Shown: positions 52,256 to 64,000 of the stretch, one piece after another | Layout: the number at the start of each line of letters is the position of its first letter | How positions within the stretch are numbered: the stretch's first letter is position 1 | From: an uncultured Candidatus Binatia bacterium | GTDB taxonomy: Bacteria; Desulfobacterota; Binatia; UBA9968; CAXXLF01 | Assembly (NCBI GenBank): GCA_965218425.1 | Contig: OZ244621.1 | Location: 448,001-512,000, forward strand | Length of the DNA stretch: 64,000 nucleotides | Direction of reading: 5' to 3' | Translations under genes and position numbers: made by a program | The notes under the pieces: generated by a model | Told to the model about the DNA's origin: nothing | Database searches by the model: none | The model's input: the letters and a program-made list of their open reading frames with translations, nothing else

Positions 52256-52723
52256 TCAGCCCTTGTTGATCTTATCCAGCTCCGCGAGGAGGTCTTTATT
52301 GTCGGGGATCCCCTTCTCGTACAACTGCTGAAAGCGCACGACACCCTGCTTGTCGATGATGAAAACTGCTCGTTTGGGGTACCCCTGAGGCCTGAGGCAA
52401 TCGTACTTGGCAGTGATTTCGCCGTGGGGATAAAAGTCCGACAACATGGGGAAATTGATCCCCCCCATTTGTTCAGCAAAGGCTTTGTGTGAAAATACTG
52501 AATCGACGCTTACGCTCAGGACCTGAGCGTCTTTGGCCTCGAAGCTCTTTCGTTCGGCTTCGAAGTTGATGATCTCCTGTCTTCACCCGCCTGTGAAGTC
52601 CAGGGGATAGAACGCCAGCACCACGTTTTTTTTACCAACGAAGTCACTTAATGCAACTTTATCCTCTCTCGTAACCGGAAGAGAAAAATCCGGAGCCTTG
52701 TCACCCACGCTCGGCATCGCCAT
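52256..52723 (-). CDS. Selenocysteine-containing peroxiredoxin (AhpC/TSA family), 155 aa
   Basis: [16 protein letters not shown]...[16 protein letters not shown](52585-52583)-RQEIINF...[11 protein letters not shown]...LSDFYPHG...[19 protein letters not shown]; hairpin at +18..+46. Confidence 0.9.
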
Positions 52724-52795
52724 ATCGATCTCCTTAAGATTTATTCTATTGCTCGTACCCTAGGCCCGTTAGCCCGTCGCACAGTCACAATGTGA

Positions 52796-62313: not shown

Positions 62314-62718
62314 CTAGAACTTCGCCATCAGTTTCTTTACCTTTAATTCGATAAGGTCGCGTACGGAGCGAAAATCATTGGGTTCCATATTTTTCGGGTC
62401 CGGGATGTCCCAATCCTCCCGTTCCTTGGTGCGCACGAACGGGCACTCGTCTCCGCACCCCATGGTGGCCACGAAATCGAATTCAACGTCCGGAATTTCC
62501 GAGAGCGTCTTGGAGAAATGGCGACTGAGGTCGTAGCCCAACTCATTCATGGATCTTATGGCCTTGGGATTGATCTTCCCGGATGGGCGGGAGCCTGCGC
62601 TGTAGGCTTCCACCCTACCCGTCCCGTGCATACGCGCAAAGGCCTCGGCCATCTGGCTGCGATTGGAGTTTTCTATACAGACAAAAAGAACCTTTTTCAC
62701 TTTTTTCGATTCCTCCAT
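62314..62718 (-). CDS. arsC: Arsenate reductase, LMW-PTP type
   Basis: VLFVCIENSNRSQMAEAF, SAGS, TMGCGDECP, WDIPDPK. Confidence 0.92.
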   Translation of the reverse strand: MEESKKVKKVLFVCIENSNRSQMAEAFARMHGTGRVEAYSAGSRPSGKINPKAIRSMNELGYDLSRHFSKTLSEIPDVEFDFVATMGCGDECPFVRTKEREDWDIPDPKNMEPNDFRSVRDLIELKVKKLMAKF

Positions 62719-62734
62719 CCACCATAGAATCAGC

Positions 62735-62909
62735 TGGATTGGCTAAAAAGTGCTCTAAATAGTTTTGCTCAAAAGCCTCACCGGCAGAGCATTCTCGTCT
62801 TCGGCTACATTACGATCCGTGAAAGGAACCTTATTATGGAAAGAAACTCTTTCACCACGTTACAGGAAGCTCAGCCAGTCGCCGTATATACCGTAACTTC
62901 TTTTTCCAT
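62735..62909 (-). pseudogene. Glutaredoxin/NrdH-like selenoprotein (UxxC), frameshifted and internally deleted
   Basis: MEKEVTVYTATG-UGA(62873-62871)-ASCNVVKEFLS, then one base missing, then NKVPFTDRNVAEDENAL; hairpin GAAAGA-GTT-TCTTTC downstream of the UGA. Confidence 0.85.
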
Positions 62910-62955: not shown

Positions 62956-63162
62956 TCAGGCCTCTTTCCTGCTTTTTGACCATCCATATAACGCCAGAAC
63001 CAAAAAGGCCGCCAGTACGGGGAACAGAACGAAATCAAGATATGGGTTAAGCGCTGCCAGTCCGAGCAGGCTTAGCCCAAAAACGAGAATCGGTGTGAAG
63101 CAACAAACTGCCGCAATGATCGAACCCCAAAGACCTGTCTTGAAACACTTACTTGCATCCAT
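62956..63162 (-). CDS. merF: Mercury transport protein MerF
   Basis: GSIIAAVCCFTPILV..L..LGL...YLDFVLFP. Confidence 0.92.
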   Translation of the reverse strand: MDASKCFKTGLWGSIIAAVCCFTPILVFGLSLLGLAALNPYLDFVLFPVLAAFLVLALYGWSKSRKEA

Positions 63163-63226: not shown

Positions 63227-63547
63227 TCAAAAATTTCCATGAACGTAAAAAACCCAAGTCATCGTTAAAGCAGTGGAAACCCACAGGGCGATGGTCGTCA
63301 TCCACCGTGCCCTTTTCCGAATCCCGCCCCAATAAATATAATGGGACCGAGCGACCAGGACAACGGCCAATAGAAAGAACACGCCCCGAAACGGCGCAAA
63401 CCAATCACGAAACGCCGCCAGACCGGCGGCTAGGCTAGTGCCTCCGCCCAACAGGGCGTAGGCCAGCGCTGCGATTCATCACCAACTCCCAGCAAGTGCG
63501 CTCAACACAGAACCTATTGACGCTCTAGTCGGAGATTTTCCTTCCAT
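63227..63547 (-). CDS. MerT-like membrane transporter with tandem in-frame UGA-UGA (predicted Sec-Sec), 106 aa
   Basis: MEGKSPTRASIGSVLSALAGSW-UU-IAALAYALLGGGTSLAAGLAAFRDWFAPFRGVFFLLAVVLVARSHYIYW... UGAs at 63481-63476 occupy the MerT CC position; SECIS-like hairpins follow. Confidence 0.8.
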
Positions 63548-63634
63548 AACACCTGCCTTTCTCTAACCAATAATTTCTAAATGCCTTCTCGGCAATTTCA
63601 TTGTTGTAAAAAACTTCAAGACGCTCACTTTGTC

Positions 63635-64000
63635 CTACACCTTGCTTGGAATTTCTTTAGGTGGATGTGATCGGACGGACTCTTCCTCGCGCGTAAACAT
63701 CCGGGCCACCAGGACGAGGATCGGAATCAGATACATGTGACCGCTCACCCACATGATCCCCCCTCCCAGCGCCTGGTCATTGATGGGACTCAGGTCCATG
63801 AGCCGGGGCATCGCTTCGTAGAAAGGATAGAGGACCTTTTCCGGCAAGGAAATCACCATACCCAGCACCGTATTCTGAAGGGTGGCTGCCACAAGATACA
63901 TGATTCGAAACCCGTAGGGAATTTCACCGTGTAGTCTTGGCGCCGGGTTCACCACCGGCCACCAGAATACAAGGGAAGTGGAGAAAAACATAAGGTGTTC
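63635..64000 (-). CDS. Cytochrome c oxidase assembly protein (Caa3_CtaG family), 3' part
   Basis: EH..FF..SLVFWWPV, LYPFY, DQALGGGIMW motifs; 5' end outside window. Confidence 0.88.
   Translation of the reverse strand, partial: EHLMFFSTSLVFWWPVVNPAPRLHGEIPYGFRIMYLVAATLQNTVLGMVISLPEKVLYPFYEAMPRLMDLSPINDQALGGGIMWVSGHMYLIPILVLVARMFTREEESVRSHPPKEIPSKV

Follow-up and report, generated by a model that had tools for sequence, protein, structure and literature searches.

In the textbook view of selenocysteine (Sec) insertion in bacteria, a single UGA is read at a set distance from a single hairpin. The locus described here raises the question whether two consecutive UGA codons can be read in this way. 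In a window of 64,000 nucleotides (the whole stretch of DNA that was analysed) from an uncultured Candidatus Binatia bacterium, the gene for a MerT-like membrane protein has TGA TGA at the place of a Cys-Cys pair. Judged by comparison with its homologues, the gene likely encodes one 106-residue inner-membrane protein with both UGAs read as Sec, and we put the probability of Sec-Sec incorporation at about 0.85. The features discussed below are collected in Table 1.

Table 1. Positions of the tandem-UGA gene, its elements and its neighbours in the window
Feature	Position	Strand	Remarks
MerT-like membrane protein gene (three helices predicted)	63227..63547	-	106 codons, predicted Sec23-Sec24
Tandem in-frame TGA TGA	63476..63481	-	Cys-Cys position of transmembrane helix 1; aligns to CC, CU, UU of homologues
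Putative RBS-like purine-rich stretch before ATG	63548..63565	-	predicted from sequence
SECIS-like hairpin	63429..63472	-	upper stem CGCCC/GGGCG, apical loop UGUU 63453-63450
merF, Cys-Cys mercury transporter family, next operon gene	62956..63162	-	NF033565 82 bits vs cut-off 50; PF11431; AAVCCF
Broken UxSC glutaredoxin gene	62785..62909	-	in-frame TGA 62873-62871, then frameshift and truncation; intact in G001 and L068
Arsenate-reductase/LMW-phosphatase family gene	62314..62718	-	far edge of the deleted operon part
CtaG-family gene, 3' end, upstream	63635..64000	-	at the corresponding place in G001 too, with no demonstrated connection to the UU gene

The tandem UGA and its relatives

The initial annotation had described TGA-TGA in an otherwise open frame of 106 codons, and direct reading of 63547..63227 bears this out. 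Between the ATG at 63547 and the final TGA at 63227 the sole internal stops are the TGA TGA at codons 23-24 (63481-63476), and the frame reads ATG ... GSVLSALAGSW TGA TGA IAALAYALLG ... WFAPFRGVF ... VHGNF TGA. ORF calling with table 11 finds only a 74-aa fragment that starts at TTG 63451. An assembly error is ruled out by the contigs of all four sequencing runs (three studies), which are identical at 63476-63481 with no other letters or indels; two of the four runs span all of the window, and the assembly may have been built from them. Throughout the host genome TGA is otherwise an ordinary stop and terminates 789 long frames, which rules out a code with UGA as Trp, and a tandem TGA follows only 10 of these 789 frames.

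Regarding the relatives of the gene, a protein search that reads through stops matched in 7 of 151 related genomes. The gene's own clade consists of the window's genome (G000), G001 (75% identity) and G004 (68%), and both TGAs are present in 3/3 of the members found. The TGA TGA is therefore not due to chance. A class-wide search (16/401 genomes matched) added one UU genome (G348), two with CU (G145, G307), one with RU (G349) and two with CC (G217, G347), and from the acidobacterial phylum (matches in 55/401 genomes) came two further UU genomes, G538 and G657, and one CU genome, G457. We also used a DNA pattern, W-[C/U]-U tied to a downstream R[AS]HY, which is able to find TGA forms only. True members made up 9 of its 28 matches in genomes (5 UU, 4 CU) and 8 of its 21 matches in metagenomes, the latter all UU by design. 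The remaining 19 genome and 13 metagenome matches were off frame or full of stops and were dropped as chance. The pattern members are assigned to Candidatus Binatia, Acidobacteria, Verrucomicrobiales and Latescibacterota, all as MAGs in which binning errors are possible.

When sequences that repeat others in the set (L031, L039, L040, L037, L049) are counted once, the UU form amounts to eight genomes and eight metagenome loci, which make up 14 tree rows; beyond the window's own, UU was seen in G001, G004, G348, L051, L054, G538 and G657 as well as in the eight metagenome loci. CU occurs in five genomes (G145, G307, L032, L041, G457), RU in one, and CC in the two genomes named above and in 27 full-length PWCC database proteins. 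The latter are part of 71 matches in the protein library, which also include several entries starting just past the motif (P0004, P0008, P0028, P0002), as expected because gene callers stop at UGA. The DNA of P0004, a truncated clade-mate, had no match in 401 genomes of one phylum; a word-based homologue search gave nothing at E<=0.001, and no relative turned up when genome contigs were scanned with back-translated peptides. Several members depart from these states. L019 (in G349) has Arg-Sec (CGC TGA) at the pair and an intact hairpin, L030 (in G126) is a PWCC member that goes out of frame shortly past the motif, and P0045 (PWLW) and P0069 (LCWI) belong to the family without a CC pair.

In a quick tree of 63 rows and 106 columns the window's clade contains UU members and truncated entries only. 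The UU state requires four label changes, at least two of them forced by strong branches. With many forks of this tree open and L113 on a long branch, the count of UU origins is given as a range (2 to 4 label changes). The UU form is old within the window's clade and had either multiple origins or repeated losses, gains and losses not being separable on this tree. Orthologues with CC, CU and UU thus exist, their flanks are conserved and the UU allele is not unique; the UGAs align to conserved Cys, as is usual in bacterial selenoproteins. Since relatives keep both UGAs at the position of the Cys pair, two neighbouring Sec residues are the most likely reading.

At the level of sequence comparison both flanks of the motif are under purifying selection: across 11 pairs, wherever synonymous sites are unsaturated, dN/dS is 0.11-0.49 upstream of the UGAs and 0.10-0.49 in the distal part. 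A pseudogene is disfavoured because both flanks keep low dN/dS.

Hairpin and selenocysteine machinery

The loop of the SECIS-like hairpin, at the tip of a long predicted stem, lies 22 nt past the second UGA and 25 nt past the first, and the predicted energy is -20.1 kcal/mol. The hairpin agrees with the four bSECIS criteria (PMC13188914, section 5) from both UGAs: both are inside the 16-37 nt window, and the G demanded in the first two loop positions is present. It is also more stable than 60/60 synonymous recodings. It is important to note that the bSECIS model is unspecific, as 16/33 canonical CC genes, 3/3 PWCC genes and about half of the recodings pass it, and against dinucleotide shuffles the hairpin is not unusual (z -0.53). 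No two-sided compensatory change was seen in 21 pairs from the gene's clade, nine of which vary on one side. The G of the loop is missing from L075, and neither L051 nor L083 passes the bSECIS model.

The SECIS reading is supported because synonymous change is suppressed over the hairpin. Specifically, in six Sec pairs the 14 codons past the motif have 15/71 synonymous differences as compared to 138/300 elsewhere, while in six Cys control pairs the figures are 36/65 and 176/306, the pairs in this comparison being kin and not independent, so that its P value is too favourable. An exception among the Cys controls is merF, with 1/9 synonymous changes. The second UU lineage and most CU genes have another hairpin, CCCUGCU/AGCAGGG with a CGGGUU-type loop at +26, which is kept at the nucleotide level across phyla. 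Its distance from the second codon is the same in CU and UU genes. Other UGA genes of the lineage have predicted loops from about +18 to about +34, which makes a tolerance of 3 nt plausible, and in UxxU chaperones one strong hairpin stands behind two UGAs.

The host genome (4.46 Mb, one contig, 97% complete) has the Sec machinery on which the initial annotation depended. More specifically, selA, selB and selD all exceed their profile cut-offs, selD itself contains an in-frame TGA, and a tRNA-Sec(UCA) scores 76.5 bits and is called tRNA-Sec by Rfam; it is the only UCA-anticodon tRNA found and the only element found in the Rfam search. The presence of selA, selB, selC and selD is in line with a bacterial selenoprotein. 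Together with the orthologues and the agreeing contigs, it makes the tandem Sec reading well supported.

De novo selenoproteome scans were too noisy for counting, and only UGA genes recognisable by motif were used. Besides the UU gene these include, in the host, a peroxiredoxin in the window and DsbA-, OsmC-, DUF411-, glutaredoxin- and flavin-reductase-like genes. The peroxiredoxin (52256-52759, minus strand) has its in-frame TGA at about 52585, at a TxxU active site with a hairpin downstream; it is a known selenoprotein type and is split by ORF calling. The DUF411-like gene with UGCC is present in two identical copies, at G000:C1 4453868 (+) and 3295591 (-), which suggests a duplicated segment. 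A second UxxC glutaredoxin lies at G000:C1 3004133 (-), and two flavin disulfide reductases, at L068:2-259 (-) and G000:C1 2282215-2283537 (+), have a redox centre of the form CxxxxU.

In the 13 other UGA-bearing genomes selA is over the cut-off in 13/13. This co-occurrence says little in the window's class and in Acidobacteriota because selA is common there (116/151 and 120/151, the second tally including one genome flagged unpublished). In Verrucomicrobiota selA is found in only 8/151 genomes, the UU genome among them. Among the CC genomes G217 has no selA, selB or selD matches, and G347 and G126 have all three. Four fragmented UU genomes have selB in pieces or incomplete, and G431 gave no tRNA-Sec match.

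Relation to MerT and the neighbouring genes

The label 'MerT, Hg-binding' given initially stands in part. The protein resembles MerT (PF02411, NF010314; short type NF033560 merT_RC607) in its length of about 100 aa, in a predicted vicinal chalcogen pair at 23-24, in having merF and MerP-like genes as neighbours, the latter in relatives, and, more tentatively, in three predicted helices. The adjacent merF with AAVCCF was named correctly by the initial annotation (see its profile score in Table 1). Hydropathy gives three hydrophobic stretches, and a low-confidence model (pLDDT 63.5, pTM 0.34) places helices at 7-33, 39-73 and 80-103; a Foldseek search of the PDB with this model gave no match. 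The scores are below every MerT cut-off: 15.8 bits for PF02411 (cut-off 32.9, E 0.015) and 39.2 bits for NF033560 (cut-off 130, E 7e-10). In Tn501/Tn21 MerT the vicinal pair is Cys24-Cys25, and Hg(II) travels from MerP Cys33/Cys36 to Cys24/Cys25 and on to Cys76/Cys82 (PMC5715351). Here, in contrast, the pair is UGA-UGA, which corresponds to the vicinal pair of helix 1 only if UGA is Sec, and an R[AS]HY motif takes the place of the cytoplasmic Cys76/Cys82. No Cys follows the motif in 23/23 loci or in 27/27 PWCC proteins, so the second Cys pair is lacking. The gene is not in a merR/merP/merA operon, and no MerA over the cut-off was found in this genome or in 5/5 other UU genomes tested. MerA below the cut-off in 6/6 genomes speaks against a classical mer operon, and more than one metal would fit. 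In view of the scores, the missing Cys pair and the lack of a MerA, Hg specificity is at most putative.

In a comparison of profiles the CC helix of MerF (PF11431, NF033565) is matched with E 1.5e-4 and a probability of 52%, and MerF is also the best, though weak, sequence match among solved structures (E 0.13). Unlike the UU protein, MerF has two helices and 68-81 aa, and the true merF of the window is the next gene.

Single-Sec Mer-type proteins are in print, as the initial annotation had stated: Haft and Gwadz (bioRxiv 10.1101/2022.07.06.499078) mention a few MerT-family selenoproteins of the CU form (WP_250634603.1), and there is a C/SxxU 'putative mercuric transport protein' with one Sec (PMC13188914, Table 1). 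In the CU proteins Sec likewise replaces a Cys of the first-helix pair, whereas here both positions are UGA and the protein is a stand-alone one of 106 aa. The MerT/CopZ fusion selenoprotein NF045683 (235 aa) also has Sec in the first-helix pair of a MerT-like protein; the window's protein has no HMA domain and scores 13 bits against its cut-off of 375. Two Sec residues in one bacterial protein are listed for the metal-binding UxxU family (NF041115), MbdU and TsoB among the 119 families in Table 1 of PMC13188914, none with adjacent Sec. As far as that table represents the current bacterial catalogue, the adjacent-Sec motif is absent from it, and CU MerT-like forms are already published. The UU form is likewise absent from the passages searched in PMC9312934, PMC1976440, PMC12013277, PMC4989117 and PMC13326102. 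A full-text literature search returned no UU form, a result that does not establish absence from print. Adjacent Sec residues occur in some animal selenoprotein P sequences.

In close relatives the UU gene belongs to a metal-regulated operon together with further UGA genes. In G001 the order is arsR, UU gene, merT-like (CC), HMA lipoprotein with UGGU, merF, glutaredoxin with UxSC and zinc ribbon with CPxU; next come csoR, a gene resembling those of outer-membrane barrels and another HMA gene, with UPIU. The first HMA protein has a lipoprotein-like signal and GMT-U-GG-U, and scores 94 bits to NF041115 (cut-off 95). L068 has the same core, then a flavin disulfide reductase with CxxxxU; on its upstream side, as in G004, are TlpA (UPTC) and DsbD-like genes. 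Other UU loci adjoin MerR-family regulators, HMA proteins and an ArsP-like permease, and none of the UU lineages examined is without a neighbouring HMA chaperone or MerR/ArsR/CsoR metalloregulator. The nearest MerR-family regulator scores best, below the cut-off, to CadR/PbrR. In the window's genome only the UU gene and merF are intact from that operon, and tblastn did not find arsR, the second merT, the chaperone, the zinc ribbon or csoR. On this comparison of gene content the host has kept only a decayed part of what was once a larger operon of selenoprotein genes, and the pathway may be partial here.

Several of these neighbours are UGA genes in their own right. A LysW-like double zinc ribbon with CPxU and a strong hairpin is found at L031:4490-4765 (+) and L068:365-640 (-); its homologue in G348 has Cys at that place, and Table 1 of PMC13188914 does not list it. 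The two UxxU HMA-domain proteins of the G001 operon are at L031:3658-3969 (+; UGGU) and L114:1882-2379 (+; UPIU). The membrane-anchored TlpA/redoxin with UPTC, beside the DsbD-like gene and upstream of the UU gene, is at L068:3129-3734 (-) and in L039.

Competing readings and proposed role

An unlikely alternative is that the full-length protein is made with one reliable Sec, the other UGA being read by a near-cognate tRNA (Trp/Cys), or that poor tandem decoding serves as a selenium-dependent throttle on expression. This would fit with CU forms being common and published, and with the hairpin lying at +26, counted from the second codon, whether the gene is CU or UU. Tandem UGAs in an E. coli fdhF-lacZ study were reportedly decoded at a fraction of the single-UGA level. 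Yet TGC or TGT would give Cys without loss, and TGA is nevertheless kept at the first position in three to four UU lineages; the hairpin spacing suits both codons, and the sole UCA-anticodon tRNA found is the canonical tRNA-Sec. Sec-Sec could also be real in a protein that acts as a membrane redox relay or sensor, its vicinal diselenide working with the glutaredoxin, the TlpA/DsbD-like pair and the flavin reductase of the operon. The TlpA and DsbD-like genes upstream in G004 and L068, the glutaredoxin and reductase downstream, the general absence of the cytoplasmic Cys pair and the lack of MerA are in favour of such a role. We consider it quite improbable, as the best profile matches are MerT and MerF and the UU gene has metal chaperones or metalloregulators beside it in each lineage examined.

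If the UGAs were true stops, a 22-residue leader would be followed by a separate product from TTG33 (74 aa) or from the ATG overlapping TGATGA. Gene callers do cut the gene in this way, as in the truncated database entries, and the TTG is present in 6/7 loci of the clade. L075, however, has no TTG, and in six LP-W-UU loci the 20 codons that follow contain no in-frame start. The part before the UGAs can be aligned to full-length CC proteins and shows selection; the overlapping ATG is ruled out by a frame length that varies from 10 to 78 codons. True stops are accordingly extremely unlikely. It is also very doubtful that the gene is a relic in this genome, a former UU selenoprotein drifting in a decayed operon. 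The partner genes are deleted, the glutaredoxin gene is frameshifted and the C-terminus is five residues shorter than in G001 and G004, but frame, start, hairpin and merF are intact, and dN/dS between G000 and G001 is 0.16 in the distal and 0.32 in the upstream part.

We therefore favour two adjacent Sec residues. Very probably, Sec-tRNA would be delivered twice in succession by SelB sitting on the one hairpin that lies 22-25 nt downstream. A soft metal ion would then, with good probability, be bound by the two selenolates, its donor being the periplasmic UxxU metallochaperone of the relatives' operon, by analogy with the step from MerP to MerT. Because the protein is without a second Cys pair, the next acceptors would be the Cys-Cys MerT/MerF proteins nearby or thiol/selenol proteins of the cytoplasm, and release would depend on the adjacent CC transporters or on the conserved His/Tyr motif. 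Hg(II) is the single most likely metal in view of the merT/merP/merF-like gene set, at somewhat less than even odds; Cu(I), Cd, Ag and Pb taken together are a serious possibility a little below that, given the lack of MerA and the ArsR-, CsoR- and CadR-like regulators. As a whole, a Sec-Sec MerT-like protein acting as a predicted soft-metal carrier seems rather likely. More tentatively, one hairpin may drive Sec at two consecutive codons, with more than one origin, in the membrane step of an all-selenium, MerA-free soft-metal relay operon. Such a relay would run from the UxxU periplasmic chaperone through the UU membrane carrier to the UxxC glutaredoxin, the CxxU zinc ribbon and the CxxxxU reductase.

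The tandem UGA bears on the mechanism of recoding and on the making of proteins with several Sec residues. A conserved natural UGA-UGA would offer a direct test of SelB reloading on one hairpin for consecutive codons. Because gene callers cut UU genes, databases of soil and subsurface bacteria show neither these genes nor the selenoprotein operons around them. The natural series of CC, CU, RU and UU at one predicted membrane metal site would make the gain of selenium over sulphur measurable.
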